IMG/VR virus record: IMGVR_UViG_3300020045_006040
Coordinates: 1 to 29,877 of that record
From: a virus
Taxonomy: Duplodnaviria > Caudoviricetes
Reading direction: 5' to 3' (one strand)
Length of the DNA stretch: 29,877 nucleotides
Part shown: piece by piece, positions 2,452-27,817 of the stretch
Position numbering within the stretch: position 1 is the first letter of the stretch
How the letters are laid out: every line of letters starts with the position of its first letter
Program-made: the position numbers and the translations under genes
Notes under the pieces: model-generated
What the model saw: the letters and a program-made list of their open reading frames with translations, nothing else
What the model was told of the DNA's origin: nothing
The model's database searches: none

Positions 2452-2592
2452 ATGATAGCCGACATTATAAAATTACTGCAATCAAATCCGTTTTATGGAG
2501 CTGGTAAATTTACCGAAATTGCAAAAGGACAAAATGAAATTGATAATTATTTTAGAAAAATATATAGAAAATGGCAATCGAAAAACAAATAA
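2452..2592 (+). CDS. Small hypothetical protein (46 aa, MIADIIKLLQSNPF...), not in ORF track
   Basis: AATTATG start fills the gap and overlaps the tape measure start. Confidence 0.55.
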   Translation: MIADIIKLLQSNPFYGAGKFTEIAKGQNEIDNYFRKIYRKWQSKNK

Positions 2593-4124: not shown

Positions 4125-4149
4125 CAATACATTAACAATTTAGTTTAAT
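4121..4149 (+). promoter_or_regulatory. Candidate late-promoter motif GTAACAA-N15-GTTTAAT, copy 1
   Basis: Same motif and spacing at 7248-7276; both precede structural gene blocks. Confidence 0.4.
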
Positions 4150-4167
4150 TATAAATAACAATCAATT

Positions 4168-4494
4168 ATGAAAGTAGAAGAAATAAAATTAGCGTTTGAA
4201 ACAAATGTTCAATTTGCAATTTCAGAAGATTTAAAAGTTTTTGGGGGCGGTGTGAAAAACAGAACTATTGCTTTACAAAAACTAATAACGGCTTATGAAA
4301 ATGCGTATGTTCAGATGAAAAATGCAAGTTCGGAAGTAATTAAAAACAATCCAATTTTAGGAAAAGTTTTAGTAAATGCAGAAAACGGAGCGAAAGACTT
4401 AGGTGTTGCCGTCGGTTCTATCCCCGGATACAATGATGCTTTACAATCTTGGAAGGAAGCTGAAACCGCTATTGCTAAATATAATTCGTTTTAA
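4168..4494 (+). CDS. Helical hypothetical protein, possible internal head protein
   Basis: 108 aa ORF coupled to the protease gene. Confidence 0.55.
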   Translation: MKVEEIKLAFETNVQFAISEDLKVFGGGVKNRTIALQKLITAYENAYVQMKNASSEVIKNNPILGKVLVNAENGAKDLGVAVGSIPGYNDALQSWKEAETAIAKYNSF

Positions 4495-5738: not shown

Positions 5739-5740
5739 AT

Positions 5741-6649: not shown

Positions 6650-6662
6650 TTAAATTAGAAAC

Positions 6663-6686
6663 AAAGGGGGATTAGTTTCCCCTTTA
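6663..6686 (+). terminator. Hairpin terminator after capsid gene
   Basis: AAAGGGGGA-ttagt-TTCCCCTTT inverted repeat. Confidence 0.6.
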
Positions 6687-6704
6687 AATAATACATATAT
6701 AATT

Positions 6705-7214
6705 ATGGCTTGTGATTTAACAGCAGGACGTTTAAAAGCGTGTAAGCAATCTTTAGGAGGTGTTTCTACTTTGTATCTTTTTAATTTTGTCGAAGACCCG
6801 TTTACGGTAGCGGCAGGAATTGCGACAGCAATTAACCCTTTGCTTACTGCGGTTTTTGAATACGAATTAGAAGGTGACGGAAACAACATTTCTGAAAGTA
6901 TGCCGAGCGACAGGAACACGGGGACTTCGGTAAATACCCAAACGAGTACTTTTGTATTAAAAAAAGTTGATGCAACCACATCCGCACAAATGAACTTACT
7001 CGCTTATGGGTTTCCTATGGCAGTAGTAAAAGACAGAAACGGAATTTATCACGCAATCGGAATTGATGACGGTATTGATTTTACGGTGGTTCAGTCTACT
7101 GGAGGAGCGAAAACAGAATTGAATGGATATACTTTGACGGGTGTATCTACAACAGGGAGCTTGTCGCCTAAATTAGACACTGCAACAGCGGCAGCATTTT
7201 TGGCTTTGGTTTAG
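6705..7214 (+). CDS. Major tail (tube) protein, putative
   Basis: MACDLTAGR..CK.S.GG N-terminus typical of flavobacterial phage structural proteins; flanked by terminators. Confidence 0.6.
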   Translation: MACDLTAGRLKACKQSLGGVSTLYLFNFVEDPFTVAAGIATAINPLLTAVFEYELEGDGNNISESMPSDRNTGTSVNTQTSTFVLKKVDATTSAQMNLLAYGFPMAVVKDRNGIYHAIGIDDGIDFTVVQSTGGAKTELNGYTLTGVSTTGSLSPKLDTATAAAFLALV

Positions 7215-7235
7215 ATATTTTTTGGATTAGTAATT

Positions 7236-7269
7236 AAAACCCTGTTTGTAACAAAATGGGGTTTTTTTT
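7236..7269 (+). terminator. Intrinsic terminator
   Basis: AAAACCC...GGGTTTTTTTT. Confidence 0.6.
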
Positions 7270-7276
7270 GTTTAAT
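7248..7276 (+). promoter_or_regulatory. Candidate late-promoter motif GTAACAA-N15-GTTTAAT, copy 2
   Basis: Matches 4121-4149 in both boxes and spacing. Confidence 0.4.
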
Positions 7277-7279
7277 AGT

Positions 7280-7585
7280 ATGATAGTTTTATTACCAACA
7301 AACACGACACACGGCTTTAATTTTATCCCTCGATTTATTCCATCGGGCGAATTAGCTTTAGAGCTGTACGATGAAACATTACAGACTAAACAAACAATTG
7401 ATAATCTATATGTTTTTGCAAATGGATTGGCTACAATGACATTCGATTTGGTATGCATAGAGAATCAAAAGTTTAAATTAAAAATATCAGAAGGTACAGA
7501 CGTAATTTACCGAGATAAAATATTTGTAACCTCACAAAATACACAAGAATTTAAAGCAACAAAAGACCATTACTATTATGAGTAA
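7280..7585 (+). CDS. Hypothetical structural protein
   Basis: ORF track 7256; ATG 7280 preferred because the upstream part is the terminator. Confidence 0.6.
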   Translation: MIVLLPTNTTHGFNFIPRFIPSGELALELYDETLQTKQTIDNLYVFANGLATMTFDLVCIENQKFKLKISEGTDVIYRDKIFVTSQNTQEFKATKDHYYYE

Positions 7586-9227
7586 CGATATAAGATTATT
7601 TCAGCTAAGCAACTATGTAAGGCCTAAATTACAAGAAAACAAAGCAAAGAATTGGGTTTTGAATGGAAAGAATAATGAATTTTATCAATACATTATAGAC
7701 CGTTTCAATGGTTCACCAACGAACGCTGCAATTGTAGACAGTTATGCCAATCTTATTTACGGTAATGGGTTACGTTGTAGAAACAATAATACAAGTGCGT
7801 GGGTTAATTTCCTGTCGATTTTAAGACCAAAGGAAGTTCGTAAAATAGTTTCAGATTTTGAATTATTTGGAGAGGCTTCTTTTCAAGTTATAAAAGCAAA
7901 AGATAAAAAAAGTTTAGGCTCAATTTATCACATACCAAAACAACAAATTGTACCGTCATTGGAAAACGAGGATGGTGTCATTGAAACTTACTGGCATTCT
8001 AAAGACTGGAGCAATACCCAAAAATATACGCCTGTTCCATATCCGTCATTTGGAACTTCAAACGAAAACATTGAAATCTATTGTATAAAACCATACAAGG
8101 CAGGAAAAAACTATTTTAGTGATCCTGATTATTTGAGCGCCTTGCCTTATGCTGAAATGGAGGAAGAGCTTGCTAATTTTTACATTAATTCTATTAAAAA
8201 AGGATTGTCTGCGGGTTATATTATTCAAGTGCCGGACGGAGGTACAAGAACTCCAGAAGATAAAGACGAGTTCGAAAGAAAAATAAAATCAAAAGTAACA
8301 GGGTCTCCAAATGCAAACAGCTTTATTTTAGATTTTTATGGAGGCGACAAACCTATAACAGTTGTTCCTTTCCCAGTTAATGACGCTCAACACAAACAAT
8401 GGGAGTATTTAACAGGCGAAAGCAGACAGCAAATTATGACGGGTCATAAAGTTGTGAGTCCTAAGTTATTTGGCATTATGTCGGATGGTGGTTTCGGAAA
8501 CAATGCCAACGAATTAGACGAAGCCGAGGCGCAATTAATGAAGCGTGTTATACAACCTAAACAAACGCCAATTATAGAAGCTTTTGAGGAAGTAATTAAT
8601 TTTTACGGCATAATGTTGGATTTGTATTTTGCACCGCTTACCGAGCCTAAAACGGTTCAATTACATTCTCACGATGAAAAAAAAAAGAGTGATTTAGATG
8701 AGTTTATCGAATTAGGAGAAGTTGAGGATTTAAGCGAATATGATTTAATCGATGTTGAAAAGTATGATGAAAATTCAGTTCCTTTAAATTTAGCAAGTGT
8801 GCCAAGTAATTTACCACTTGCGCCAAGTGAAATAGATAACGATACTTTTAAAGTTCGTTTCGAATATGCAGGGAGTCTAAACCCAGAAAGGGAATTTTGT
8901 AAAAAAATGATAACGGCTGGAAGGGTTTTTAGACAAGAAGATATTGAATTAGCGAGTAAAAAAGCCGTTAACCCGGGTTGGGGACCAGAAGGCGCAAACA
9001 CATACGATATTTTAAAATATAAAGGCGGTGGGGATTGCCATCATTTTTGGCAAAGAAAAGTATATTTGAAAAAATCAAATAAATACATCACAATAGAACA
9101 GGCTCAAAAAATGATTCGTGGTTTAAAAGAATTAGGAATTAAAACCGAAATACCAAAAAGCACCGAGCCATTAAGTACAGTTAAACCAATGGATATGCCT
9201 AACAACGGATTTTTAAAGAAAAGATAA
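7578..9227 (+). CDS. Portal protein with C-terminal MuF-like extension
   Basis: Portal-like core (YF..PDY..AL, HKV.SP.LFGI, VIQPKQ..I) of about 365 aa, then acidic linker and REFC..M...GG.DCHHFW motif. Confidence 0.8.
   Translation: MSNDIRLFQLSNYVRPKLQENKAKNWVLNGKNNEFYQYIIDRFNGSPTNAAIVDSYANLIYGNGLRCRNNNTSAWVNFLSILRPKEVRKIVSDFELFGEASFQVIKAKDKKSLGSIYHIPKQQIVPSLENEDGVIETYWHSKDWSNTQKYTPVPYPSFGTSNENIEIYCIKPYKAGKNYFSDPDYLSALPYAEMEEELANFYINSIKKGLSAGYIIQVPDGGTRTPEDKDEFERKIKSKVTGSPNANSFILDFYGGDKPITVVPFPVNDAQHKQWEYLTGESRQQIMTGHKVVSPKLFGIMSDGGFGNNANELDEAEAQLMKRVIQPKQTPIIEAFEEVINFYGIMLDLYFAPLTEPKTVQLHSHDEKKKSDLDEFIELGEVEDLSEYDLIDVEKYDENSVPLNLASVPSNLPLAPSEIDNDTFKVRFEYAGSLNPEREFCKKMITAGRVFRQEDIELASKKAVNPGWGPEGANTYDILKYKGGGDCHHFWQRKVYLKKSNKYITIEQAQKMIRGLKELGIKTEIPKSTEPLSTVKPMDMPNNGFLKKR
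8677..8692 (+). other. A10 tract / A-AAA-AAG slippery site with -1 frame TGA
   Basis: GAA AAA AAA AAG AGT GA in frame at the portal/extension junction. Confidence 0.5.
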
Positions 9228-10705: not shown

Positions 10706-12466
10706 ATGAAAAAAATACTTTTATTTTTACTTTTATCGATTGCGGGATACGGGCAAGTAAGTACAGGGCAAGAACAGGAATTTGACTACGGAATAAAAAA
10801 CAATTCTACGCAAACCATCACAAACCCAAACACGTTAGTAACTCAAGGTGCAGACGGTACTTATGGAAAAGCATCGGTAAACAACATCCCTATTTCAATT
10901 CCGGTTCAAGATAGTTTAAATAAAAAACTAAACTTACCTACTGGATTTCTACAAGGATTGCAATTATCGGTAAATGTAGACCCTACAAAGTTTAATATCG
11001 CAGCAGGTTATTACGTGGTTACTGATTTTTCAACCTTGACTCAACCAGTTGTTAAAATTATATCTTATGCGGGTGCAACGGGATTAAGCCCTGCTTACCT
11101 ATTAACGGCAAATAGTACTTATGTAGCGTTAGACATTAATGGAGCTTTGGTGTCGAGCGCATCTCCTTTTACAGACGCTCAAAGGCGTACATTAGCTTTA
11201 GTTGGTAATGTAGTACATCCAAATCACACCACAATAAATAATACCAATGAGATAAAAGCTCCGATAGTTGCAATTGGAAATCAACTGCACGATTTTATGA
11301 AGGCTATTGGCTTCTTGAATGAAAACGGCAATATTTACAGTGCGAACGGCGCAAATTTAATGTTGAATAAGTCGTCAGGAGATATTTTCGGAATGGGTAT
11401 AAATTCAGCAGATTATTTAAACCCACATAAATTAACAATACCCGCTCAAACCGCTATAACTTTTGCGTATAGGTTTCAAAATGGAGTTCAAACAGCAGAC
11501 ACACAAAACATTAATCCTAATATTTATGATGTTGGCGGAGTTTCAACAGCCGTGCCAGTTGGCAGTCGTTGGACAGTTCAAAGGATTAATTTATTTCAAT
11601 CAGGAATAGCACGCATACAACCGGGGCAAACTGTTTATACGTCATTTAATGACGCTGTCATGTCTTTACCTACTCAACCATTTGTAACTGAACAAAATAT
11701 TGCTGATAATGCTGTGTTTAGATGTTATTTAATAGTTCAACAAGGTACAACTAATTTAGCAAGTGCGGTTGCAGGTGGTACAGCTCAATTCGTGCCAGTT
11801 GATAAATTTGGAAATATTATTGGTAATGGTAGTGTTGCTTTGACTTATAGTAATATCGTGGCGGCTTTAGGATATACGCCGGCAAATGATGTTGATGTAG
11901 TTAAATTAGCAGGAGATCAAACGCTTACAGGATTGAAAACATTAGACAACGGAGAGATTAAATTTAAAAGTTTAACAACAGGCACTTACAACAGTATATA
12001 TTTTTCAGATGATGAATTTTCAACTAAAATATATGCAGATGCTACCCCGTCATTTTCTGTAAAAGCAGGTAATTTAAATTTATTGAATAGTGCGAAAACT
12101 TTTTTTACAACTTTTCAGAACCCTGATTTAATAGGAAACGTTACGATTAATACTCCTACGGAAAGCGGAAAACTGGCATTGACAAAATTAATCGTCCGTA
12201 AAATATCAACAAATACAACACTTGCAAATACCGATAACGGGACTATAATATTATTAACCGCATCGTGTACGGTAACTTTGCCTAATGGCCTAATGAGTGG
12301 TTTTAATTGTTCTTTTTCTACTCAAACAGGCGTCACAATGACATACGCATTAGGAGGTTCAGTAGTTTTAATAAATAATACAGGGACAACAATGGCAGAA
12401 AAATTAAGCCATACAATAGTAAATACAGGAGTTTCTAACGAATATTTAACAGCAGGTTCATTATGA
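10706..12466 (+). CDS. Tail fibre-like protein with signal-peptide-like N-terminus
   Basis: Thr/Asn/Gly-rich; ALGYTPAND and GDQTLTGLKT fibre motifs; MKKILLFLLLSIAGYG-Q. Confidence 0.6.
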   Translation: MKKILLFLLLSIAGYGQVSTGQEQEFDYGIKNNSTQTITNPNTLVTQGADGTYGKASVNNIPISIPVQDSLNKKLNLPTGFLQGLQLSVNVDPTKFNIAAGYYVVTDFSTLTQPVVKIISYAGATGLSPAYLLTANSTYVALDINGALVSSASPFTDAQRRTLALVGNVVHPNHTTINNTNEIKAPIVAIGNQLHDFMKAIGFLNENGNIYSANGANLMLNKSSGDIFGMGINSADYLNPHKLTIPAQTAITFAYRFQNGVQTADTQNINPNIYDVGGVSTAVPVGSRWTVQRINLFQSGIARIQPGQTVYTSFNDAVMSLPTQPFVTEQNIADNAVFRCYLIVQQGTTNLASAVAGGTAQFVPVDKFGNIIGNGSVALTYSNIVAALGYTPANDVDVVKLAGDQTLTGLKTLDNGEIKFKSLTTGTYNSIYFSDDEFSTKIYADATPSFSVKAGNLNLLNSAKTFFTTFQNPDLIGNVTINTPTESGKLALTKLIVRKISTNTTLANTDNGTIILLTASCTVTLPNGLMSGFNCSFSTQTGVTMTYALGGSVVLINNTGTTMAEKLSHTIVNTGVSNEYLTAGSL

Positions 12467-13188
12467 GAAAGTATATAATTTTATTACTGCTTTGTGGTTT
12501 TATTGGAAACGCACAATATAATTTATTTGCAAGACAAAATTTTGCAAAAAAAACAAGTATATCTACATTATGGGATGGGTTAGTTTCATTATATAAATTA
12601 GATGAGATAACAGGCACTTTAGCGAATGATAGTTATGGAGCTGCTCACCTAACAAACACAGGAATAACAATAAATCAAACGGGTAAGTTAGGAACTTCAT
12701 ACGCCTCAACATCTGCGGGTCAAAATCTAAATGCGACAGGAGTTGCGGCTATTACAGGTAATTTTACAATGAACGTATGGTGTTATAGAATGGGCAATAC
12801 AACTGTAGATAACATATCTATATTCGAACAAGGAGATTACGGCGCCGGTTTTGGTATATGGCTAAAAAGCAATAACTACGTAGGGTGGTTTATAAATACA
12901 AATTATAATAACTACATTTTATCCAACCCCCTACCTTTGAATGACTGGGTTATGATAACCATAACGTATGACGGAACCTATGTGAAATTATATCAAAACG
13001 GCGCTTTGATGAATGCATGGGCTTTTTCAACAAATCCATTATCAGCAACTACTAGAAGGATGTTTAACAGGACATCAAACACAGATGCGTATATAGGTAG
13101 ATTAGATAACGCATCTGTATTTAATAGAGCATTGACGTTAAGCGAAATAGCTAGCCATTATAACGGGGGATCAGGCATAACTTTATAA
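12463..13188 (+). CDS. LamG/concanavalin A-like lectin domain protein with signal-peptide-like N-terminus
   Basis: GLVSLYKLDE, FT..VW, W..ITITYDG...KLY.NG, G.LD...VFNRAL...EI...YN. Confidence 0.8.
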   Translation: MRKYIILLLLCGFIGNAQYNLFARQNFAKKTSISTLWDGLVSLYKLDEITGTLANDSYGAAHLTNTGITINQTGKLGTSYASTSAGQNLNATGVAAITGNFTMNVWCYRMGNTTVDNISIFEQGDYGAGFGIWLKSNNYVGWFINTNYNNYILSNPLPLNDWVMITITYDGTYVKLYQNGALMNAWAFSTNPLSATTRRMFNRTSNTDAYIGRLDNASVFNRALTLSEIASHYNGGSGITL

Positions 13189-14969: not shown

Positions 14970-15373
14970 GACTACTAATTTCCACTATTTTAGCAATTAT
15001 TATTTTATCTTTTCTATTTGGATGCGGAACTAGGAAAACAGATACCCAACAATTAGAAAACATAGCAATCGAAAATAAATACGATACAGGCTCGAAAATA
15101 GTATTAGGCAATACTTTTACGTATAAGCCTTTTGACCCGTTGAAAGTTATGGTTATTGAAGGAAAAACGTATAGTAATGCGATTGTTAGTAATGATAAAT
15201 CTATTGTAAAAGAAGTATGGAAACGAGAAACTAAATATAAAACAATTACCATTGAAAAAACAAAAGCCACAATTCGAGAGAATCATGATTTTCTATACAT
15301 CGGTTTATTTTTAGTATTAGTATTTGGCGTTTTAGCTTGGTTTAAATTGCCTAGTTTTAGAAAGGGCATTTAG
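14966..15373 (+). CDS. Unimolecular spanin candidate
   Basis: Lipoprotein signal (LFGC) plus C-terminal TM helix, directly after endolysin. Confidence 0.65.
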   Translation: MRLLISTILAIIILSFLFGCGTRKTDTQQLENIAIENKYDTGSKIVLGNTFTYKPFDPLKVMVIEGKTYSNAIVSNDKSIVKEVWKRETKYKTITIEKTKATIRENHDFLYIGLFLVLVFGVLAWFKLPSFRKGI

Positions 15374-15536
15374 ATTTAACTTTTGGAATTAGACTATCAT
15401 ATTCCATTTTTATTTTTTCCGCTATTGCATCACGAATAAATTTACCAACATCAACGTTATACGACTTCATTTTTTGAAGTGTTTTTAATTGACTTTCTGA
15501 AATACGCACAACCTTTGTTTTAGTGTAAAATTTCAT
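15357..15536 (-). CDS. Ribbon-helix-helix-like DNA-binding protein (59 aa), not in ORF track
   Basis: MKFYTKTKVVRISESQLKTLQKMKSYNVDVGKFIRDAIAEKIKMEYDSLIPKVKSKCPF: strand-helix-helix pattern. Confidence 0.7.
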   Translation of the reverse strand: MKFYTKTKVVRISESQLKTLQKMKSYNVDVGKFIRDAIAEKIKMEYDSLIPKVKSKCPF

Positions 15537-15539
15537 AAT

Positions 15540-15578
15540 TGTAATACATTTGTAGCTGTTAGCGAGTAGTTATAAGGC
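15540..15578 (+). other. attI-like left boundary of the cassette array
   Basis: GTTATAAGGC at 15569 matches the cassette-1 right end but has no preceding hairpin; second GTTAG at 15558. Confidence 0.45.
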
Positions 15579-15581
15579 AGT

Positions 15582-16064
15582 TTACGAAAGACGTACATAA
15601 CGACCTTTAATGTCACAATTTTTAAGGATTTCAGCGTTTTCTTCGCCATAAGCAATTAACACACTTGGCGCACCTGCTGTCCCTCCTTTTTCTCCTGTAA
15701 CGTGGTAAAAACTCAATCTGCCTTTTATAAATAATATTGCGGTTGCTTTTTCCCAAACGCATCTAAAAAACATTTTCGTTTCAGTTCTAGCAAAAGTCAA
15801 AGCAATACAATTTCCGTGCATTGATGCTTTTTCTAAAAAATGTTCTGCATACTTTCCGTATGGTGGATTACACCAAACCCTACCTTCCCAATTTTGCATT
15901 AAGCCATTATCGTTTATATTGAAATGCTTTTTTGCCGTGTCCCAAGGTCTATTTATTGGAGAACACGGATCTAAATCAAACTCTCCTAGACTTTTAATAA
16001 TTTGCGGTGGCGTTAGCCATTCGTCTTTTCCTGTTGCTGTATTCCCTTCAAAAGTTACATCCAT
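15582..16064 (-). CDS. Cassette 1: phage DNA N6-adenine methyltransferase (Dam-like, PF05869 type)
   Basis: DEWLTP, FDLDPCS, VWCNPPY motifs. Confidence 0.85.
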   Translation of the reverse strand: MDVTFEGNTATGKDEWLTPPQIIKSLGEFDLDPCSPINRPWDTAKKHFNINDNGLMQNWEGRVWCNPPYGKYAEHFLEKASMHGNCIALTFARTETKMFFRCVWEKATAILFIKGRLSFYHVTGEKGGTAGAPSVLIAYGEENAEILKNCDIKGRYVRLS

Positions 16065-16088
16065 CGTATTTGGTGTTAAAAAACCGCC

Positions 16089-16218
16089 TTATAACAATTG
16101 CTATAAAACAGTTGGGTATTGTGATTAATTTAAACATTTGGACTATCCGAATGCTTGGGTCTTGGCTCGAAGTTTGGGGAATTTCTATCCCAACCGTCTT
16201 ATAGCAAAAACGTTAGCG
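16089..16218 (+). repeat. attC-like site 1 (long class)
   Basis: TAAC 16092...GTTA 16212; arms TTGCTATAAAACAGTTGGG / CCCAACCGTCTTATAGCAA. Confidence 0.8.
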
Positions 16219-16224
16219 GTCAGT

Positions 16225-16521
16225 TTAGTGAGAAGCATTGTAATAACCACTCCAAATCTTCTCTTTGCACTCAAATAAATTTGACAATTGCTTGCTTAAA
16301 TTATATTCACGCATTGGATTTCTACAAGTATCTATTTCTTTTTCTAAGTCTTTAATTCTTTGCTCAACCATTTGCTCAAACATTTCAGGAATATTATCTT
16401 GAATTTCTTTTATTATTTCATTTTGAAACTTTGCTAAATCTTCTAATTCTTTACGTTTTGGAATACCTAACATAAATTTAGTAGTTAGTTTTAATAATTT
16501 ATTTGTTACTTTTTTTGACAT
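16225..16521 (-). CDS. Cassette 2: hypothetical helical protein
   Basis: 98 aa ORF filling the cassette. Confidence 0.7.
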   Translation of the reverse strand: MSKKVTNKLLKLTTKFMLGIPKRKELEDLAKFQNEIIKEIQDNIPEMFEQMVEQRIKDLEKEIDTCRNPMREYNLSKQLSNLFECKEKIWSGYYNASH

Positions 16522-16546
16522 AATATTTGGTGTTATAAAACCGAAC

Positions 16547-16678
16547 CGCTAACAATGCATAACACTAATTACGGTTTCTGTCTTGAATTTATAGTTTAGT
16601 TTGTATCAGTGATACGGTTTTTGTATTTATAGTTTCGGCTTACTTAACCCGTAACTAGAGTTATGCTCAACGTTATGG
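16547..16678 (+). repeat. attC-like site 2 (long)
   Basis: TAAC 16550...GTTA 16672; arms GCATAACACTAATTACGG / CCGTAACTAGAGTTATGC. Confidence 0.8.
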
Positions 16679-16708
16679 TGCATTGCTCGATTATCATTCA
16701 TAAGAACT

Positions 16709-17242
16709 TTATTTCACGTATGAAGTAAATTCCGTTCCTCTATCACAAAACGAATTTACCATTGAGCAAACAAGTCCAAATGACATTCCTGAATGACCTT
16801 GATTTTCAATAAGCGGTTTTACTTTTTCAAGTTCTTCGCCTTTGTTTAATTGTTCAACTATTTCAAGGCAATTTCCTAATTCCATTCCTTGATATAAATC
16901 TCCTAATCTAATCGGAACACATTTTACCCATAATTCAAGATATTTTTCATCCAATATCTCTTTTCCTTTTTCAATCCATTGTTTTGTTAGTTCAGGAATT
17001 GCTTCTTCGTGCTTTCTTTTTTGTTCTTGGTATTCCTCGCTTCTTTTTCTTTCTGCTTCATCACATTCAGCTTTTGTTTTACCTGTAATTTTTACATAAG
17101 CAGAATCTAAATCATCAATATCGGAATATAATTTTTGTCCATTAAATATACCAAAAACCAATTCTTTATGGCTTTTCAATTCTTTTACCGCTGATTCGAT
17201 ATTTCCGAATCCAAATTCAATTTCTTTGTACACTTTTTTCAT
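16709..17242 (-). CDS. Cassette 3: hypothetical protein (177 aa, MKKVYKEIEF...)
   Basis: Start revised to ATG 17242; the ORF-track extension reads through site 3. Confidence 0.75.
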   Translation of the reverse strand: MKKVYKEIEFGFGNIESAVKELKSHKELVFGIFNGQKLYSDIDDLDSAYVKITGKTKAECDEAERKRSEEYQEQKRKHEEAIPELTKQWIEKGKEILDEKYLELWVKCVPIRLGDLYQGMELGNCLEIVEQLNKGEELEKVKPLIENQGHSGMSFGLVCSMVNSFCDRGTEFTSYVK

Positions 17243-17274
17243 AATAACATTTAGTTTTAGCAACCCACAACGCA

Positions 17275-17404
17275 CCATAACAGTCGTTTGTAGCAAGACT
17301 GCATTGTCTTGTGTTTGAGTGGTCGGGTTTAATTTATAAATTAGTTTTTGCTTGTATGATTTGTCTTGAATCAACGTCCTGCTACAAGCGACAGAGCGTT
17401 ATGC
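17275..17404 (+). repeat. attC-like site 3 (long)
   Basis: TAAC 17278...GTTA 17398; arms GTCGTTTGTAGCAAGAC / GTCCTGCTACAAGCGAC. Confidence 0.8.
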
Positions 17405-17410
17405 CTAATA

Positions 17411-17635
17411 CTACGATTCTGACTCGTAGGTATTTAAGCAATTTAAGTTATAATTTATTGGCAGGTTGTTTTTAGAATTATAAACTTTTTGCAATTGCTT
17501 TCTAACTCTTTCCTCTCCTGTTCCATCACAAGCTCCGCAACTTTTTCCGAAATAACCTCCAGTACCTTCGCAGTAATGACAATTTTGTAAATTTGGCTGG
17601 CTTTCTCCGTTTTTTATTCCTTTTTTCCTTCCCAT
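17411..17635 (-). CDS. Cassette 4: DnaJ-type zinc-finger small protein
   Basis: CHYCEGTG and CGACDGTG (CxxCxGxG x2). Confidence 0.7.
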   Translation of the reverse strand: MGRKKGIKNGESQPNLQNCHYCEGTGGYFGKSCGACDGTGEERVRKQLQKVYNSKNNLPINYNLNCLNTYESES

Positions 17636-17671
17636 ATTTTTTATTATTAATATTTACTTTTGCCGTACTAG

Positions 17672-17750
17672 GCATAACACTTGCTACAAGCTACCAGCCG
17701 AATATACGCAACCGCATAGGCTGGCATCTTGTAGCAAGAGAACGTTATAA
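17672..17750 (+). repeat. attC-like site 4 (short)
   Basis: TAAC 17675...GTTA 17744; arms CTTGCTACAAGCTACCAGCC / GGCTGGCATCTTGTAGCAAG. Confidence 0.8.
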
Positions 17751-17754
17751 ACAA

Positions 17755-18054
17755 TTAATCCAAAACAGAGCAATATTCTGGATGAGATAAATTATTTTCT
17801 AACCATTTTTTCACTTCTTCTGTAGTTCCTTCTTCTGATGAATATCCGTAAAATGATGCTCCTCTAAAAGTTCTTCCGTCACAATCACCCTCAAGTTCTT
17901 CTTCAATTTTTCTTTCTATATCTCCTGTGTAATCCTCTATTGAATTACATAAAACCATAGCTTTATTTAATCTTTCTGAGTAATCATAAGCCCAGTTTCC
18001 TCTTAAATCGTTTAATAACTGCCCTAAGCAAGTTTTTAATTCTTCTTGTGTCAT
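17755..18054 (-). CDS. Cassette 5: acidic hypothetical protein
   Basis: 99 aa ORF filling the cassette. Confidence 0.7.
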   Translation of the reverse strand: MTQEELKTCLGQLLNDLRGNWAYDYSERLNKAMVLCNSIEDYTGDIERKIEEELEGDCDGRTFRGASFYGYSSEEGTTEEVKKWLENNLSHPEYCSVLD

Positions 18055-18065
18055 AATTTAACTGT

Positions 18066-18196
18066 TTATAACATCGGTTTTGCTCTATTGCGGTTTAGTG
18101 CTTTACCGATATTCGGTTTGTGTTTGTTAATTTTGTTTTTTAATCTAAACTTTTGGCTTACTTTTCCGCAACAAAGCAAGCCGAGAAACGTTATAA
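18066..18196 (+). repeat. attC-like site 5 (long)
   Basis: TAAC 18069...GTTA 18190; arms TCGGTTTTGCTCTATTGCGG / CCGCAACAAAGCAAGCCGA. Confidence 0.8.
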
Positions 18197-18218
18197 GCTA
18201 GTTTGCCTAAACGACAAC

Positions 18219-18485
18219 TTATCGTTTTTTAAAGTTGTTTCTAGGTTTGTCAAAATATTTATTTCTAGGAATATCATTTATTTTTGGTTCAAACCATTCT
18301 TTATTAAAATTATGTATTTGAATTGGTTCGGGTTCAAACGCTTTATTTTGCATTTCTTCAATTTGTTTTTTATCATTAGCAATTACAATTTCAATTTGTT
18401 GCTTATGAATTTGTTGAATACTTTGCAATGCAAATGCGAGTCCAAGACTGTTACCACATCCTACTAAAACTATTTTTTGTCGCAT
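18219..18485 (-). CDS. Cassette 6: hypothetical protein
   Basis: 88 aa; N-terminus KIVLVGCGNSLG resembles a Rossmann beta-alpha fragment. Confidence 0.65.
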   Translation of the reverse strand: MRQKIVLVGCGNSLGLAFALQSIQQIHKQQIEIVIANDKKQIEEMQNKAFEPEPIQIHNFNKEWFEPKINDIPRNKYFDKPRNNFKKR

Positions 18486-18496
18486 AAAAAACCAGC

Positions 18497-18633
18497 TTAT
18501 AACAGTGGCTACATTTCAGCTTTCGCACTGTTGATTAATTTAAAAATTTGTTTGTACTTGTATTGTTTAGGCAATTCCGAAAGATGGTTTCTTTATCCCA
18601 TCAAGCCGAAACTGTAGCCACGAAACGTTATCA
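18497..18633 (+). repeat. attC-like site 6 (long)
   Basis: TAAC 18500...GTTA 18627; arms GTGGCTACATTTCAGCTT / AAGCCGAAACTGTAGCCAC. Confidence 0.8.
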
Positions 18634-18634
18634 C

Positions 18635-18784
18635 TCAGCTTGAGTGTAACTGCTTAAATTCGTGTGCGGGGGCGTAATACTCTCGACCACCGTCTAATCG
18701 TATCATAATTGCACGCCCATAATAATTATTAAACTCTTTTACAAAAGTTCCTACTTTTCCAGTTAAAACGTGAACATATTTCAT
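18635..18784 (-). CDS. Cassette 7 second gene: 49 aa beta-rich protein, not in ORF track
   Basis: MKYVHVLTGKVGTFVKEFNNYYGRAIMIRLDGGREYYAPAHEFKQLHSS; ATGA overlap with the upstream gene. Confidence 0.65.
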   Translation of the reverse strand: MKYVHVLTGKVGTFVKEFNNYYGRAIMIRLDGGREYYAPAHEFKQLHSS

Positions 18785-19041
18785 AATATTTTAATTTTTT
18801 CAATTTCTTCCTTTAATATTTTTTCTTCATCAATTAATATTTGTATTAATGCAGGATATAGTTTTTCACTAAATTCAATTCCTTTAGACTTCAATTCAAA
18901 TAACAATTCTCTTAAAGAATGATATTCATTTTGAACACAAAAAATAGCATTTTTTTTTGATTTTTCTAAACATAAATTAGAATTGTAATCTGACAACGCA
19001 AATTCTTGAACTAATCTATATGCTTTTTCTTTTAATATCAT
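18781..19041 (-). CDS. Cassette 7 first gene: hypothetical protein, paralog of cassette 9 gene
   Basis: NEY..LRE.LFEL...LI.EEK shared. Confidence 0.7.
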   Translation of the reverse strand: MILKEKAYRLVQEFALSDYNSNLCLEKSKKNAIFCVQNEYHSLRELLFELKSKGIEFSEKLYPALIQILIDEEKILKEEIEKIKIL

Positions 19042-19067
19042 AATATTTGCATTTTAAAAAGCCGAAG

Positions 19068-19197
19068 TGATAACATACGTTAACCGCTATTCAGGCTTTA
19101 GGTTTAATTTAATTGTCGTTTTGTGTCTGTAAGATTTGTGATTACTCGAAATTCAGTTCTTACTTTTCCTGAACATCGGTTAGCTTTTCCGTTAGTG
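19068..19197 (+). repeat. attC-like site 7 (long)
   Basis: TAAC 19071...GTTA 19191; arms GTTAACCGCTATTCAGG / CCTGAACATCGGTTAGC. Confidence 0.8.
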
Positions 19198-19203
19198 ACA
19201 AGA

Positions 19204-19452
19204 CTACGAGTTATATTCAAACCACATATAAACATCGTCGTAAAATGGTATTAAAAACTCACCTCGCCCACAATCTTCATCATAAATTTCACTCCAATTG
19301 TATTCGTGATTAAAGCTTTGTTCTTCTACATCTTGTTTTTTGAATTTATTAGGGTCAATATCTCCATATTCCACAACTCCAATCATTGCTACATAAGATA
19401 AATCTTCTCTCAAATAATCAAATGCTTCTGTAATTTTTTCTTGTATTGTCAT
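19204..19452 (-). CDS. Cassette 8: acidic hypothetical protein (82 aa, MTIQEKITEAF...)
   Basis: Start revised to ATG 19452. Confidence 0.7.
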   Translation of the reverse strand: MTIQEKITEAFDYLREDLSYVAMIGVVEYGDIDPNKFKKQDVEEQSFNHEYNWSEIYDEDCGRGEFLIPFYDDVYMWFEYNS

Positions 19453-19499
19453 TTCGTTTAGTTTTATAATTAATATTTGTTTTAAAATTGCCGTCCAGC

Positions 19500-19576
19500 T
19501 ACTAACAATCACTATACAGCAGTTGCCGAATCTACGCAACCGAATAGGCAACCGCAGTATAGTTTTAACGTTATGT
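19500..19576 (+). repeat. attC-like site 8 (short)
   Basis: TAAC 19503...GTTA 19570; arms ACTATACAGCAGTTGCC / GGCAACCGCAGTATAGT. Confidence 0.8.
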
Positions 19577-19583
19577 GAGATTG

Positions 19584-19877
19584 TTACGAGTAATCTTCAA
19601 AAGAAAATATATCTAAAAAATCAAGTATTCTTTTTTCCTCGTTTATCAAAGCATCCAGTCTAGCTAAATACACTCTCCCATTTTCAATTGTATGACAAGC
19701 TCTTAATTCAAAAAGCATTTCTCTCAACCAATAATATTCGTTTTTCACGTTAATTCTTGCACATTCTTTTGCGTTTTTAAACATTTTTTCTTGTTCAGAA
19801 AGAATATCATCACCTTCATAATCTACATAAGGAGAAAAGTCAAGTATTAATTTTTCTATTTTTTCTTTAACGTTCAT
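19584..19877 (-). CDS. Cassette 9: hypothetical protein (97 aa, MNVKEKIEKL...)
   Basis: Start revised to ATG 19877; paralog of 18781-19041. Confidence 0.7.
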   Translation of the reverse strand: MNVKEKIEKLILDFSPYVDYEGDDILSEQEKMFKNAKECARINVKNEYYWLREMLFELRACHTIENGRVYLARLDALINEEKRILDFLDIFSFEDYS

Positions 19878-19906
19878 AACAAATTCAGTTTTAAGAACCG
19901 CACTAC

Positions 19907-20038
19907 TGGTAACATATGCTACACAATAGCTGGGTTTCGGGTTAAATTTAAAGTTTGTTTTGCGCCTTTTTAATCTGTCATTATCCGAAGTCTGGGTGTG
20001 TGCTTTTCCCAGCCATCGTGTAGCATCCGCCGTTAGTG
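19907..20038 (+). repeat. attC-like site 9 (long)
   Basis: TAAC 19910...GTTA 20032; arms ATGCTACACAATAGCTGGG / CCCAGCCATCGTGTAGCAT. Confidence 0.8.
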
Positions 20039-20047
20039 GCAAGACTA

Positions 20048-20266
20048 CTAAACATCCGTATAATTAAGCCACCAGTTACGATGCCACATAATGCCACAAT
20101 TATTTTTTAAAGTAATCCAGAAATATCTAGTATTCCGTTGGTACATTCCAGAGCTTCCAGAATCCCAATAACCATTGTATCTGCATTCTCTAGGTATTGC
20201 CCATCTAATAAATGTCTTGCCTATTTTTAAATATTTTCTTTCAAATTCATCGACTACTATTTTCAT
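20048..20266 (-). CDS. Cassette 10: Trp-rich hypothetical protein
   Basis: 72 aa ORF filling the cassette. Confidence 0.7.
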   Translation of the reverse strand: MKIVVDEFERKYLKIGKTFIRWAIPRECRYNGYWDSGSSGMYQRNTRYFWITLKNNCGIMWHRNWWLNYTDV

Positions 20267-20313
20267 CTTGTTTTATTTTTTTTATTAATGTTTATCGCTT
20301 GTTGCCGTCCTGC

Positions 20314-20393
20314 CACTAACAGCGGTTACATTTCAGCAGCCGAAATCTCGTAGCTGGATAGGCTGCCGAAATTGTAGCCGCAGGACGTTATAA
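20314..20393 (+). repeat. attC-like site 10 (short)
   Basis: TAAC 20317...GTTA 20387; arms GCGGTTACATTTCAGCAGCC / GGCTGCCGAAATTGTAGCCGC. Confidence 0.8.
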
Positions 20394-20399
20394 CTCAGC

Positions 20400-20570
20400 T
20401 TATTTTTTATCCATTTCCTCAATTAATTCATCTTGCCATTCTAAAAGCTTATTTTTTTCTGAAATATTTACTTTTAGATCAAAAATTTCCTCTTCTTGCC
20501 GGATTACTTTTCTGGCAAGGATTATGCATAAAATCAGTAATAATGCTATTGATATTATAAGTGCTGCCAT
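20400..20570 (-). CDS. 56 aa membrane-anchored coiled-coil protein, not in ORF track
   Basis: MAALIISIALLLILCIILARKVIRQEEEIFDLK... Confidence 0.6.
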   Translation of the reverse strand: MAALIISIALLLILCIILARKVIRQEEEIFDLKVNISEKNKLLEWQDELIEEMDKK

Positions 20571-20571
20571 G

Positions 20572-20853
20572 TTATTTTGTTATTTTGGTTAATAGTTGTT
20601 CGATTTCTAAAGCACTAACTTCGTCCATATAGTATTCTAGTCTATCTTTTAATTCTTTCAACATTTCAAACATTTCTGGAGCTGATTCTATCAATTTAAG
20701 ATTAGACTGTGCCTCGTTTTTAAAAACGTGATAGAACTCATAAGCGACTACCCGAGCTATTATTTTTGTTCCACACATAATTTCAACAGGCGATGTATTA
20801 TTTAAAATATTCCCGTCCCTTTTCCACTTCCCTTTTGTTCCTTTAAATTCCAT
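20572..20853 (-). CDS. Phage hypothetical protein
   Basis: MEFKGTKGKW...N.KLI..APEM.E.L motif common in phage early genes. Confidence 0.75.
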   Translation of the reverse strand: MEFKGTKGKWKRDGNILNNTSPVEIMCGTKIIARVVAYEFYHVFKNEAQSNLKLIESAPEMFEMLKELKDRLEYYMDEVSALEIEQLLTKITK

Positions 20854-20855
20854 AA

Positions 20856-21038
20856 TTAATTTACTTTTACAATTGAATAATCTACTTCGATTTCTGACAA
20901 TGGTTTATCGAAATTTACATCGCTTAAACGTACTTTAAAAGCACAATTTTTAACAGTGCGTAATTCGTCATTTAATCGTTTATTTTCGTTCTCTAACGCT
21001 TCGATACGTTGCATTAGGAATTGGTTTTGTTCTTTCAT
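20856..21038 (-). CDS. Hypothetical coiled-coil protein
   Basis: Tightly packed operon. Confidence 0.65.
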   Translation of the reverse strand: MKEQNQFLMQRIEALENENKRLNDELRTVKNCAFKVRLSDVNFDKPLSEIEVDYSIVKVN

Positions 21039-21241
21039 AATGTTTTTTTATAAATTTCTAAAAGTTCTTTTGTTGTGTATCTATTGAATTTACCATCTAC
21101 ATACTTAACCCAAGTAGTTCTATCTAATCCATAATTACTATTACACCATTCTGCAAACCCAATAGCAAAATTTTCTGCTATTTCAACGCAAAATGAAATA
21201 TTGTCATCTACGTAAATACTAAATTCATTTTCTAATCCCAT
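21035..21241 (-). CDS. Phage hypothetical protein
   Basis: FAIGFAEW...TTKELLEIYK. Confidence 0.7.
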   Translation of the reverse strand: MGLENEFSIYVDDNISFCVEIAENFAIGFAEWCNSNYGLDRTTWVKYVDGKFNRYTTKELLEIYKKTL

Positions 21242-21314
21242 AACTATCTAAATATTAAATTAAGAATAAAATAAACCCCGACAATTGCAAGGAATATTAT
21301 TTGAGGTTTTTGTT

Positions 21315-21563
21315 TCATTTTGATTGTTTTAAAAGTTCGATAAATTCTTGCTCTGTGATTTCAGTTAAATTTTCATAATTGCATTTATAATTGCAGAATT
21401 CTCCATCGTAAAAATAAAAACAATCATAATTTGTTTGCGTCGGAACAGGTTTAAAGTCAAAATCGCGCCAATATGGTAACCCATTATCAATACATAATTG
21501 TTTCATTTTATCACATTGCTCTTGTGATTCCATTATTACAAATGTGTTGTATATTGTTTTCAT
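21315..21563 (-). CDS. Hypothetical protein
   Basis: ATGA overlap with neighbour. Confidence 0.7.
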   Translation of the reverse strand: MKTIYNTFVIMESQEQCDKMKQLCIDNGLPYWRDFDFKPVPTQTNYDCFYFYDGEFCNYKCNYENLTEITEQEFIELLKQSK

Positions 21564-21802
21564 TTTGATATTTTTGAAATTATAGTTTCTAATTCGTCAA
21601 GTCTATTTATCACATTCAAAATAGTAGTTGAGCCGTGCAAATCTTTTTGAATAAACGCGTTTAAGCATGTTTTAAGGTTTGGATAGTAATATCTATCAGT
21701 AGATATATAATCGCCTTTCTTTTCGCTGTTTTTCTTTTCTGTAAACACTAATATAGCGTTGTTTTCGTCGAACTCAATTGAGTAATTCTCTGTTAGTTTC
21801 AT
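21560..21802 (-). CDS. Hypothetical protein
   Basis: Operon packing. Confidence 0.7.
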   Translation of the reverse strand: MKLTENYSIEFDENNAILVFTEKKNSEKKGDYISTDRYYYPNLKTCLNAFIQKDLHGSTTILNVINRLDELETIISKISK

Positions 21803-21808
21803 TTCTCT

Positions 21809-21961
21809 TTATTTTTTAAACGTTTGTGATACATTAAGATAAGGCTCTAATAACTCATCGATTTGCTTTTCGGCAATAATCGGAATACGTTTCAATTTTG
21901 TTGGAGAATTGTATTTTTGTTTTCTCCCAGCGTTACGCTCGTTATTTGTTAGTTTTTTCAT
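21809..21961 (-). CDS. 50 aa basic putative DNA-binding protein, not in ORF track
   Basis: MKKLTNNERNAGRKQKYNSPTKLKRIP... Confidence 0.6.
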   Translation of the reverse strand: MKKLTNNERNAGRKQKYNSPTKLKRIPIIAEKQIDELLEPYLNVSQTFKK

Positions 21962-21963
21962 AT

Positions 21964-22128
21964 TTAATTAGCTTTTAAAATTACATTTTCAATTTTTATC
22001 CAAGTTTTCATATATCCTCTAGGCCATTTAACCTGAATCCTGTTTCTAAATAAGTCAATATCTAAAACATTACCTTCAACACCTTTTTTATCTCCTATTA
22101 TCGCTATTATTGTATCGTTGATTTTCAT
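21964..22128 (-). CDS. 54 aa KOW/SH3-like protein, not in ORF track
   Basis: D.I.AI.GDKKGVEG.VL.ID..RNRI.V resembles a KOW motif. Confidence 0.6.
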   Translation of the reverse strand: MKINDTIIAIIGDKKGVEGNVLDIDLFRNRIQVKWPRGYMKTWIKIENVILKAN

Positions 22129-22151
22129 ATTGTTCGTTGTTTTTATTTCTA

Positions 22152-22181
22152 CAAATGTACACCTTTTTATTTAATTACAAA
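22152..22181 (-). promoter_or_regulatory. Leftward Bacteroidetes-type promoter
   Basis: TTTG-N18-TACATTTG on minus strand. Confidence 0.65.
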
Positions 22182-22225
22182 ATTAATTATGTTATATAGA
22201 TTTAATATAAATAACGTTTTTAATA

Positions 22226-22255
22226 TTGTTTATTCAATTAATAGTCATATATTTG
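22226..22255 (+). promoter_or_regulatory. Rightward Bacteroidetes-type promoter
   Basis: TTG-N19-TATATTTG. Confidence 0.65.
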
Positions 22256-22276
22256 CTGAACTAAAATATAGAAATT

Positions 22277-22513
22277 ATGAGCCTAGACACATACAACGAA
22301 CACAATCATATTAATCCAATTAATCAAAAGGAAAATGAACCATTAACAGAATTAGAACAACAACAAGACTGGAATCAAGATTTATTAAAACGTATCCAGT
22401 CGCAAAAATCGGATCTGATTAAGTTAAAAGAAATTGAAGAAAGTTTTAAAACTTTTGGTTTTTTGAGTTATGAAGAAAGTACAGAAAAAAATAACATTTT
22501 AAATAAATATTAA
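22277..22513 (+). CDS. Hypothetical protein
   Basis: First gene of the rightward operon. Confidence 0.7.
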   Translation: MSLDTYNEHNHINPINQKENEPLTELEQQQDWNQDLLKRIQSQKSDLIKLKEIEESFKTFGFLSYEESTEKNNILNKY

Positions 22514-22741: not shown

Positions 22742-23470
22742 ATGAAAAACGAGATTACAACAACAGAACAAGTTAGCGACAAAGTACTTATTGAGTACTT
22801 AGATGTTATGGGAATCGCTCCAAAATTAGACGAAAAAGAGAAATTACAATTTCTTAATATCTCAAAAACGTTTGGTTTAAATCCTTTTAAACGTGAAATA
22901 TTTTGTACGGTTTATGGAGAGGGTCAATATAAACAATTTGCCATTATTACAGGTTATGAGGTTTATATTAAAAGAGCTGAAAGATCAGGACAATTAGACG
23001 GATGGAATGCGACTACGTCCGGAACAGTTGAAAATGGAGATTTAAAAGCAACTGTTACTATATTCAGAAAAGACCGTCAACATCCATTTATTTGGGAAGT
23101 TTTTTATAATGAATGTGTGCAAAAAACTAAAGCCGGAGCGGTTACTAAATTTTGGGAAAAAGCAAACTTTATGACTAAAAAAGTAGGTATCTCACAGGCT
23201 TTTAGATTGTGTTTTTCTGACGAATTAGGAGGTATGCCATACACAAGTGACGAAATGCCACAACAAGAAATTACTCAAGATATTCCGCACGTTGAAATTG
23301 TCGAAAATGTACCTACAATGAATAATTCTCAACACAAAAAACTAATTGACACGGCAACCGTTGAAAGATTAGGCGAGGTTTTGAATATGATTGAAGAAGG
23401 AAAATTGAACGCTACAAGTGCGCATGTTTTGACGTTAGAGGAAAAATTAATTGAATTAAAAACAGTATAA
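22742..23470 (+). CDS. bet: Single-strand annealing recombinase (Bet/RecT family)
   Basis: FL......GLNPF.REI, I..G...Y...AERSGQLDG, M..KV...QA.R..F...LGG.YT.DEM. Confidence 0.8.
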   Translation: MKNEITTTEQVSDKVLIEYLDVMGIAPKLDEKEKLQFLNISKTFGLNPFKREIFCTVYGEGQYKQFAIITGYEVYIKRAERSGQLDGWNATTSGTVENGDLKATVTIFRKDRQHPFIWEVFYNECVQKTKAGAVTKFWEKANFMTKKVGISQAFRLCFSDELGGMPYTSDEMPQQEITQDIPHVEIVENVPTMNNSQHKKLIDTATVERLGEVLNMIEEGKLNATSAHVLTLEEKLIELKTV

Positions 23471-24546: not shown

Positions 24547-24831
24547 ATGATCTTAGAAGGAAAAATTGAAGTAATTCAAGAAGTAGAAGAAAAAGGAACT
24601 TTCAAAAAACAGTCGTTAATATTGCAAACTGAATTGAGTAGTCAATATCCACAATTTGTAAATATTGAATTTCAACAAAACAATTGTGATTTATTAAATG
24701 CGGTTGTAGTTGGTGACGATGTTAAAGTATCAATTAATATCGCTGGCCGGAAGTGGGTAAATCCAGAAGGCAAAGATATTTATTTCAATACTATTAAGGG
24801 TTGGAAAATTGAAAAGACAAGTACATTCTAA
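24547..24831 (+). CDS. DUF3127-like OB-fold single-stranded DNA-binding protein
   Basis: F.K...L.T...QYPQ...IEF.Q...GD.V.VSIN..GR.W...YFN.I.GWKIE. Confidence 0.8.
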   Translation: MILEGKIEVIQEVEEKGTFKKQSLILQTELSSQYPQFVNIEFQQNNCDLLNAVVVGDDVKVSINIAGRKWVNPEGKDIYFNTIKGWKIEKTSTF

Positions 24832-27118: not shown

Positions 27119-27311
27119 ACACAAAAGCTTAATCGAGAGCATAATACAAACCATTATAGGTCTTGGAACATCGATATTAATACAGATTATTTTATACCCA
27201 ATGATGGGTATTCCTGTAACATTTTCGCAAAACTTAATTATTACTTTGGTATTCTTTTTAGTATCAATTGTAAGGGGTTATTTTGTGAGAAGAATATTTG
27301 AGAAATTATGA
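27105..27311 (+). CDS. Small two-TM phage membrane protein
   Basis: Q.K..SLIES...F..VSIVRGYFVRRIF motif. Confidence 0.7.
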   Translation: MKQTKHKSLIESIIQTIIGLGTSILIQIILYPMMGIPVTFSQNLIITLVFFLVSIVRGYFVRRIFEKL

Positions 27312-27817
27312 ATGATATATTAAAATTATTCGAAGCAAATGTTTTAGAAGGCGATGTAGTTTATACGCCTGATTATGTTTCTAAAAATATAATTGAATTT
27401 CTAAAACCTGCAGGCAAATGTTTAGATCCCTGTAAAGGTGATGGAGCGTTTTTAAAATTTATGCCAATTGATTCTGATTATTGTGAACTTCAGGAAAATA
27501 AAGATTTTTTGCATTACGAAAAAAAAGTAGATTGGATAATTGGAAACCCGCCTTATTCTATTTTTGAAGATTTTTTAAGACATTCATTTCAAATATCAGA
27601 TAATGTTTCTTTTTTAGTCCCTACAAATAAAGTATTTCAACGTCAATTAATTATGGATATGATTAATAATTATGGAGGAATAAAAAGCATTATTATTTAC
27701 GGAAGCGGAAATTTAATTGGTTTTCCATTTGGTTTTAGTGTTGGAAACTTTCATTTTGAAAAAGGATATAAAGGAAAAACTGAGTTAATAATAGGAATGA
27801 AAAATATATTTAATTAG
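27308..27817 (+). CDS. DNA amino (N6-adenine) methyltransferase
   Basis: D.VYTP, LDPCKGDGAF, IIGNPPYS. Confidence 0.8.
   Translation: MNDILKLFEANVLEGDVVYTPDYVSKNIIEFLKPAGKCLDPCKGDGAFLKFMPIDSDYCELQENKDFLHYEKKVDWIIGNPPYSIFEDFLRHSFQISDNVSFLVPTNKVFQRQLIMDMINNYGGIKSIIIYGSGNLIGFPFGFSVGNFHFEKGYKGKTELIIGMKNIFN

Follow-up and report, generated by a model that had tools for sequence, protein, structure and literature searches.

A phage-borne array of ten gene cassettes with mostly matched ends and a predicted integron-like mode of insertion

Introduction

The viral record IMGVR_UViG_3300020045_006040, analysed here over its whole length of 29,877 nt (the window; ~90% complete according to CheckV), contains ten hairpins which divide the region 15569-20387 into ten segments. 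This raises the question of what delimits the segments, whether they are mobile and which kind of enzyme might have moved them. An earlier note on this DNA had claimed that the two ends of each segment are private reverse complements and had proposed that the units were inserted individually as circles. In integrons, circular cassettes are established and the own attC site of a cassette is defined as its circular form (as described in the parts of PMC4889954 and PMC2674596 considered here). For the window, we consider it probable that ten mobile cassettes were inserted singly, as circles, at the attI-like position G15569|TT by a Xer-like tyrosine recombinase predicted to act in trans.

Results

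Cassette ends match over a 15-bp arm

Sequence comparison revealed the plus-strand structure TT-body-AAC-hairpin-G for the cassettes, and all ten window sites are imperfect palindromes of the order R''-L''-variable terminal structure-L'-R' with an AAC/GTT core, which are hybrid in the array. The hairpin travels with the body on its left, and the plus strand was therefore taken as the top strand. The reverse polarity, with each hairpin belonging to the right-hand body, was rejected: similarity of the L arm to the cassette's own end family was found in 28% of 155 comparisons versus 1.4% of 142 for the end family of the next cassette. The sites were located with a detector which scores the inner stem and TAAC/GTTA only and leaves the R arm further out unused; all ten window sites scored 19-25, compared to at most 14.x in five shuffled windows. 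The array went undetected by a generic repeat finder, and an Rfam scan of 15000-22500 gave no match at E<=1.

The sequence starting at each GTT matches the end of the same cassette in perfect runs listed in Table 1, while the run with the hybrid partner in the array is 4-7 nt. Over positions 5-15, own ends matched in 80 of 110 cases compared to 32 for the hybrid partner and a permutation mean of 36.6 (p<=5e-6, 200,000 permutations), and at positions 16-20 matching was at background level (13/50, p=0.72). None of the ten window cassettes has a Watson-Crick pair at position 11, which is A/G in eight and A/C in two. Under the end-match rule, 10 bp are followed by position 11, which is fixed as non-Watson-Crick (G·T on the minus strand), and by a further 4 bp.

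All eight end pairs listed in the earlier note are present at their places, and the counts above agree with its statement that ends pair across their own gene and not with the hairpin partner. The match beyond the usual 7-bp core is the visible part of the stricter 15-bp arm rule, and the mismatch given there in lower case reflects position 11. The claim made for each cassette applies to eight of ten, as cassettes 8 and 9, omitted from that note, do not have such ends. The term private had to be abandoned: the start of cassette 8 fits the end of cassette 10 (9/12) better than its own (7/12), unrelated genes in different phages use common ends, and homologs of the genes of cassettes 1 and 3 occur with other end pairs or none. 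The end of cassette 8 is identical (20/20) to that of an end family whose start differs at 2/18 positions, and the start of this cassette may have drifted or be chimeric. Cassette 9, with a start resembling those at loci L074/L083 (16/18) and an end identical to that at L041 (20/20), is by these likenesses a chimera of two end families.

Conservation of the arm rule and folding of the sites

A set of 85 loci anchored on a 59-aa gene next to the array, the window included, was compared. Cassettes were counted as unique bodies, and L090 was left out as it lies on the same contig as L006. In 207 unique cassettes, own ends matched in 92-95% at positions 5-9 (hybrid partner 24-41%), 67% at position 10, 1% at position 11 and 65-86% at positions 12-15, with background values from position 16. 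At position 11 the start carries A in 99%, and the partner is G in 74%, C in 18% and A in 1%. On the minus strand this gives either a G·T wobble or a T·C mismatch, and on the plus strand C·A.

The inner L arm, which like the outer R arm comprises 15 bp, shows the same feature, with A/G at position 11 in 206 of the 230 sites, out of 255, whose arms pair in an ungapped register. Extrahelical bases are hence mostly absent (230/255); one bulge each was found in window sites 5, 6 and 10, located on the L' arm in 6 and 10. The L arms pair in 81-96% at most positions despite a very variable sequence. As the inner arm repeats the position-11 feature, a circular cassette would have a pseudo-two-fold minus strand once folded. 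The minus strand folds better than the plus strand in 10/10 window sites and in 221 of 224 matched-end cassettes (mean -4.4 kcal/mol). When the minus strand of the circularised site was compared with that of the hybrid site, the circular form folded better in 9/10 window sites and 222/224 matched-end cassettes.

An attI-like docking site precedes the array

Upstream of the 59-aa gene, comparison alone revealed a conserved attI-like half-site in 78 of 85 loci. The sequence switches exactly at G|TT: the left half is conserved, and the right half varies, with 56 distinct 15-mers among the 78 loci. The left arm, with its conserved T at 15553, resembles an inner attC arm and, in 86% of the 59 distinct halves, shares its base at position 11. 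A hairpin was looked for upstream of the attI-like site and none was found. From 0 to 11 sites were detected per locus; these array sizes are lower bounds, because the detector misses some sites. End matching declines with distance from attI, from 57/63 cassettes in first place to 25/36 in fifth or later places (p=0.007), as expected if new cassettes enter at the attI-like site.

The 59-aa protein gave matches to DUF6290 and RelB antitoxin which are weak and below the cut-off, and since only such profile matches underlie the label, the name ribbon-helix-helix (RHH)-like is tentative. The palindrome directly upstream of its start codon is possibly an operator, judging from its position and conservation. 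At the right border, a complementary end to the array tail was sought within 1.5 kb and none was found; the tail at L018 is homologous to the window tail and has different first 15 nt. This tail probably represents the right half which the docking site had originally. A further locus (L066, genome G013, 1104-7950) carries two back-to-back arrays, one ending at a short recombinase and the other at the RHH-like gene, and the tails of both start with the same 17 nt.

Cassettes and their modules are exchanged

Near-identical cassettes which retain their ends and hairpin occur next to different neighbours in five pairs (L005c6/L062c1, L056c3/L076c1, L074c2/L083c2, L050c1/L055c2 and L007c5/L010c3, c denoting the cassette). 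One cassette is present twice in phage 6H, and L060 equals L061 plus one cassette. Cassette 1 was also found in another sample (run X1) with 4 differences in 647 nt, where it lies behind an attC-type end and the likeness extends from 15569 to 16215. The start of cassette 3 stands first after attI in L030. Such comparisons of related sequences show precise gain, loss and reordering of cassettes at G|TT.

Arms, hairpins and open reading frames (ORFs) combine in various ways. Among pairs with the same first 10 nt, 218 of 229 have non-homologous ORFs, and 113 start 10-mers are used among 224 cassettes; the end pair of cassette 4 encloses three unrelated ORFs elsewhere. Conversely, 18 homologs of the cassette 3 gene comprise six cassettes with three other start families (five self-matching, one not), two decayed traces and ten genes without a site, and 18 homologs of the Dam-like gene of cassette 1 comprise two cassettes with other ends and 16 genes without a detected site, one or two of which have arm-like remnants. 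Of 272 pairs which agree in the end 10-mer, 209 differ in their inner arms, with the switch in similarity within TAACA. The ORF stop codon starts between positions 2 and 17 of the start arm in 157/222 cassettes, in 68 of them at position 14; in 66/222 the first ATG falls inside the hairpin, where longest-ORF calls may overreach. We infer from these combinations that arm pair, hairpin and ORF are exchanged as separate modules; new cassettes therefore likely arise when an existing arm pair takes in a new ORF. Hairpin swaps would follow from top-strand recombination at the AAC box, and ORF replacement would be simplest in a circle, in which both arms and the hairpin are contiguous.

Next to cassette-gene homologs at L143, L116 and L121, arm-like remnants were observed and hairpins were not detected; these are possibly decayed, fixed cassettes.

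Gene orientation and predicted transcription

A leftward block of small genes runs from 22128 to 15357, and the array occupies its downstream end. In phages, the longest ORF is located on the bottom strand in 185 of the 190 cassettes with an ORF (17 have none), co-oriented with the leftward operon. In arrays on host chromosomes, which follow the same arm rule, 11 of 12 cassettes are forward; 11 of the 12 come from one genome. The exceptional host cassette is long, its ORF is in reverse orientation and its ends do not match.

Two TAnnTTTG motifs at 22152-22185 are the only minus-strand matches in 15300-22300. TAnnTTTG is the consensus of the Bacteroidota -7 promoter element. The pair is likely the promoter of the leftward operon, as predicted from the motif, and one leftward transcript probably reads the array from its far end. 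Minus-strand promoters were not found in the hairpins (2/182 versus 5.6 in shuffled sequences).

A recombinase without I2 is linked to related arrays

The window contains no match to PF00589. Among related records, 8 of 40 have such a match, and of 15 near-complete relatives 11 have none, all of which carry sites. A recombinase of 266-267 aa is encoded directly left of the array and transcribed away from it at L093, L094 and L100 (two phages and one prophage-like region). These array-linked enzymes reach 116-146 bits on TIGR02249 (cut-off 265). Their alignment to IntI4 falls into two pieces which skip ~48 residues at the position of I2, a domain which they apparently lack. They are closer to the XerA, XerC and XerD models than to IntI, yet far below the XerC and XerD cut-offs. 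The prophage-type integrases (384-433 aa) of relatives were rejected as the array enzyme, as they are not located at arrays.

Homologs of the recombinase occur in 64 of 101 sampled Flavobacterium genomes. At 20 host recombinase loci, sites on the expected side were found in three, with the same anatomy, and none in 16; the region was too short in one. Most host homologs (L173-L192; 345-370 aa, with an N-terminal extension) have no array within ~13 kb upstream, resembling In0 elements.

Table 1. Features of the cassette array and its surroundings in the window. Matches are perfect runs between the two ends of a cassette, counted from GTT.
Feature	Positions	Strand	Start G / end C	End match (nt)	Contents and remarks
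RHH/RelB-like small DNA-binding gene, 59 aa	15357..15536	-			phrog_25647 (E=1e-31); fixed anchor adjoining docking site
Imperfect palindrome TGTAATACA	15540..15548	.			immediately upstream of RHH-like ATG; 83-100% conserved per position in 78 loci
attI-like docking site	15549..15583	+			15-bp left arm 15549-15563, 5-bp spacer, crossover G15569|TT, right arm from cassette 1
Cassette 1	15570..16212	+	15569/16095	10	Dam-like N6-adenine methyltransferase ORF 15582-16064 (-); hairpin 16096-16211
Cassette 2	16213..16672	+	16212/16553	9	98-aa ORF 16225-16521 (-); hairpin 16554-16671
Cassette 3	16673..17398	+	16672/17281	10	ORF 16709-17245 (-); hairpin 17282-17397
Cassette 4	17399..17744	+	17398/17678	10	74-aa Cys-rich ORF 17411-17635 (-); short hairpin 17679-17743
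Cassette 5	17745..18190	+	17744/18072	10	99-aa ORF 17755-18054 (-); hairpin 18073-18189
Cassette 6	18191..18627	+	18190/18503	10	88-aa ORF 18219-18485 (-); hairpin 18504-18626
Cassette 7	18628..19191	+	18627/19074	9	two ORFs 18635-18784 and 18781-19041 (-); hairpin 19075-19190
Cassette 8	19192..19570	+	19191/19506	6	ORF 19204-19452 (-); short hairpin 19507-19569
Cassette 9	19571..20032	+	19570/19913	4	ORF 19584-19877 (-); hairpin 19914-20031; ends unmatched
Cassette 10	20033..20387	+	20032/20320	10	72-aa ORF 20048-20266 (-); short hairpin 20321-20386
Array tail	20388..20570	+			right-arm-like start, then backbone ORF 20400-20570 (-)
Two TAnnTTTG motifs	22152..22185	-			predicted promoter

Discussion

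Proposed mechanism

The best reading of the array is an integron-like system of Bacteroidota which would work on folded single-strand circles, with the enzyme supplied in trans by another phage or by the host. Circularisation would bring the two ends of a cassette together across the hairpin, and folding of the minus strand would then give a pseudo-two-fold site. Each arm of this site would carry, on the strand which reads inward, a T at position 11 paired as G·T. As the plus strand would show C·A at this position, the wobble may serve as strand selector, a task which falls to extrahelical bases in classical attC sites. The attI-like site, in its double-stranded form, likewise has this T in each of its arms. 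A single strand exchange followed by replicative resolution is assumed by analogy with integrons. The 15-bp end match could be explained if only a circle with a full R arm were a good substrate. The earlier proposal of individual insertion as circles is strengthened by both checks suggested with it, namely the folding comparison and the change of neighbours around near-identical cassettes, including cassette 1 behind another neighbour; the circle itself is a prediction.

Several observations weigh against this reading. No circular junction was found among the 14 joints listed in the contig sets of four runs; contigs drop rare forms, none of the runs searched covers half of the stretch, and most joints stem from other genomes with hairpins in common and did not count as evidence on the window phage. 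Unmatched ends occur in 2/10 window cassettes and 31/255 overall, so other routes such as homologous recombination also act. The left arms of attI sites next to recombinase genes differ from the left arm next to the RHH-like gene; likeness of the sites therefore does not fix which enzyme serves the window phage. The link between enzyme and site is drawn from their adjacency, 16 of the 20 host recombinase loci have no site on the expected side, and host array anatomy is known from 12 cassettes, 11 of them of one genome. As the contig is only ~90% complete, an own recombinase could lie beyond it.

Alternative explanations

An ordinary phage cluster of attC sites lacking an integron integrase (CALIN), made up of classical attC cassettes which a normal IntI would move in trans, shares with the window the R''-L''-L'-R' order, the GTT/AAC core, the G|TT boundary and the bottom-strand bias, and phage CALINs have been published (PMC9892861). 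We nevertheless regard it as improbable, given the low TIGR02249 scores of the array-linked enzymes, their gap where IntI4 has I2 and the absence of a bulge from most L arms. Moreover, P12002L_attC1 was the only one of six sites not integrated by IntI1 in that study, as far as the part considered reports, in which it was cloned with 7-bp R arms only. That conclusion extends, with little hope left for it, to a role of the ends in mRNA, by which the 5' and 3' flanks would pair with G·U at position 11 and genes would be shuffled by homologous recombination between repeated spacers. The better-folding strand is indeed the coding strand in phages, a RecT family gene lies at 22742-23470 and cassette 9 is apparently chimeric, but the host arrays keep the G·T on the minus strand with 11/12 ORFs on the plus strand, so that their mRNA would have C·A. 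Exchanges also occur exactly at G|TT beside an attI-like half-site which is not repeated, and Rfam gave no match at E<=1.

We give least credence, and very little, to conventional double-stranded Xer-type recombination at sites with 15-bp arms, for which the hairpin would be a terminator or accessory and single-strand folding dispensable. The affinity of the enzyme to the XerA, XerC and XerD models and the resemblance of the attI-like site to a simple double-stranded site with a 5-bp spacer would suit it. The R and L half-sites of the attC-like sites, however, exist only once folded, and double-stranded action would leave unexplained both the high L-arm pairing in spite of very variable sequence and the strand specificity of the fixed mismatch.

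Relation to known systems

The following comparisons refer to the parts of the cited papers considered here. Like integrons, the window has an array of single-ORF cassettes bounded by G|TT, with hybrid sites in the array and the true site in the circle (PMC4889954, PMC5027507, PMC4792948); the bottom strand folds better and contains G·T pairs, the recombinase gene, where linked, lies left of attI and points away, and the newest cassette stands at attI, as the decay gradient suggests. Unlike integrons, in which the R arm is a 7-bp core, the window system pairs over 15 bp, and each arm has G·T fixed at position 11, mostly without the two or three extrahelical bases found on L'' of attC. In classical attC the G:T bias is an average skew and extrahelical bases have been named as strand determinants (PMC5027507); a fixed symmetric wobble does not appear in the parts of that paper compared. 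Further differences are the recombinase of the array-linked kind without I2, the attI-like site next to the RHH-like gene without a recombinase in cis and the inverted phage ORFs read from the attI-distal end, whereas integron ORFs lie on the top strand with a promoter at attI. As the array has no I2 enzyme, mostly no extrahelical bases and inverted genes, it is not an integron as defined.

The array also resembles the phage CALINs of Qi et al. 2023 (PMC9892861), clusters of attC-like sites without integrase and often with DNA methyltransferases. That paper treats two "divergent" attCs in Polaribacter phage P12002L as classical. In this phage (L194, 29150-40950) our detector found 8 same-strand sites; judged by eye, attC1 of that paper is a member of the window site family, and attC2 lies on the opposite strand and spans the left boundary of the array. 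An attI, a cognate enzyme, the inverted-gene rule and extended arms are absent from that account as far as considered. P12002L and P12002S (L193) both carry the window cassette family and several methyltransferase genes, and the left boundary in P12002S has the same RHH-like gene and palindrome. A third relation exists to CTXphi, which integrates via host XerCD without I2 or extrahelical bases (PMC4792948) and is likewise a phage without its own recombinase that uses a folded single-stranded site and an I2-less Xer-type enzyme. Unlike CTXphi, whose whole genome integrates at dif, the present system would insert small cassettes into a GTT-type site carried by the phage, and it includes a dedicated recombinase linked to arrays. 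A search of the open-access literature revealed no description of the window cassette system.

On a wider proposition we are evenly divided: Bacteroidota and their phages would run a second, I2-less integron in which a Xer-like recombinase reads a symmetric folded site via the position-11 T in both arms, with the G·T wobble as strand selector. Such a system would be a candidate for the missing step from Xer to IntI, and phages would bring a docking site of their own, rely on an enzyme from elsewhere and serve as cassette factories, enclosing ordinary phage genes in reused arm pairs; these frequently provide the stop codon. I2 and the extrahelical bases of attC appear to presuppose one another, a chicken-and-egg problem (PMC4792948) which becomes testable with an I2-less enzyme beside arrays mostly without such bases and with a symmetric G·T instead. 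The origin of cassettes has been called unknown (PMC4889954); their creation becomes testable where the same gene is found bare or in several arm pairs and the same arm pair around unrelated genes, with sharp borders. Phages appear to vary early genes, methyltransferases included, through site-specific cassettes.

Other features of the window

The best nucleotide matches of the window are Flavobacterium phages (48/52 records), and portal, capsid-like, endolysin, RecT and SSB genes were identified. The RecT-like annealing protein (22742-23470) and a DUF3127 SSB (24547-24831) could create chimeric cassettes or provide single-stranded DNA. A lone TAAC...GTT hairpin at 13066-13137 (detector score 21.8) lies inside a 241-aa ORF (12463-13188); no matched ends flank it and no similar DNA was found in the first 90 loci, and it may be a chance occurrence or a stray site. 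Two DNA methyltransferase genes are present in the window, one in the backbone (27308-27817) and one in the newest cassette (15582-16064).

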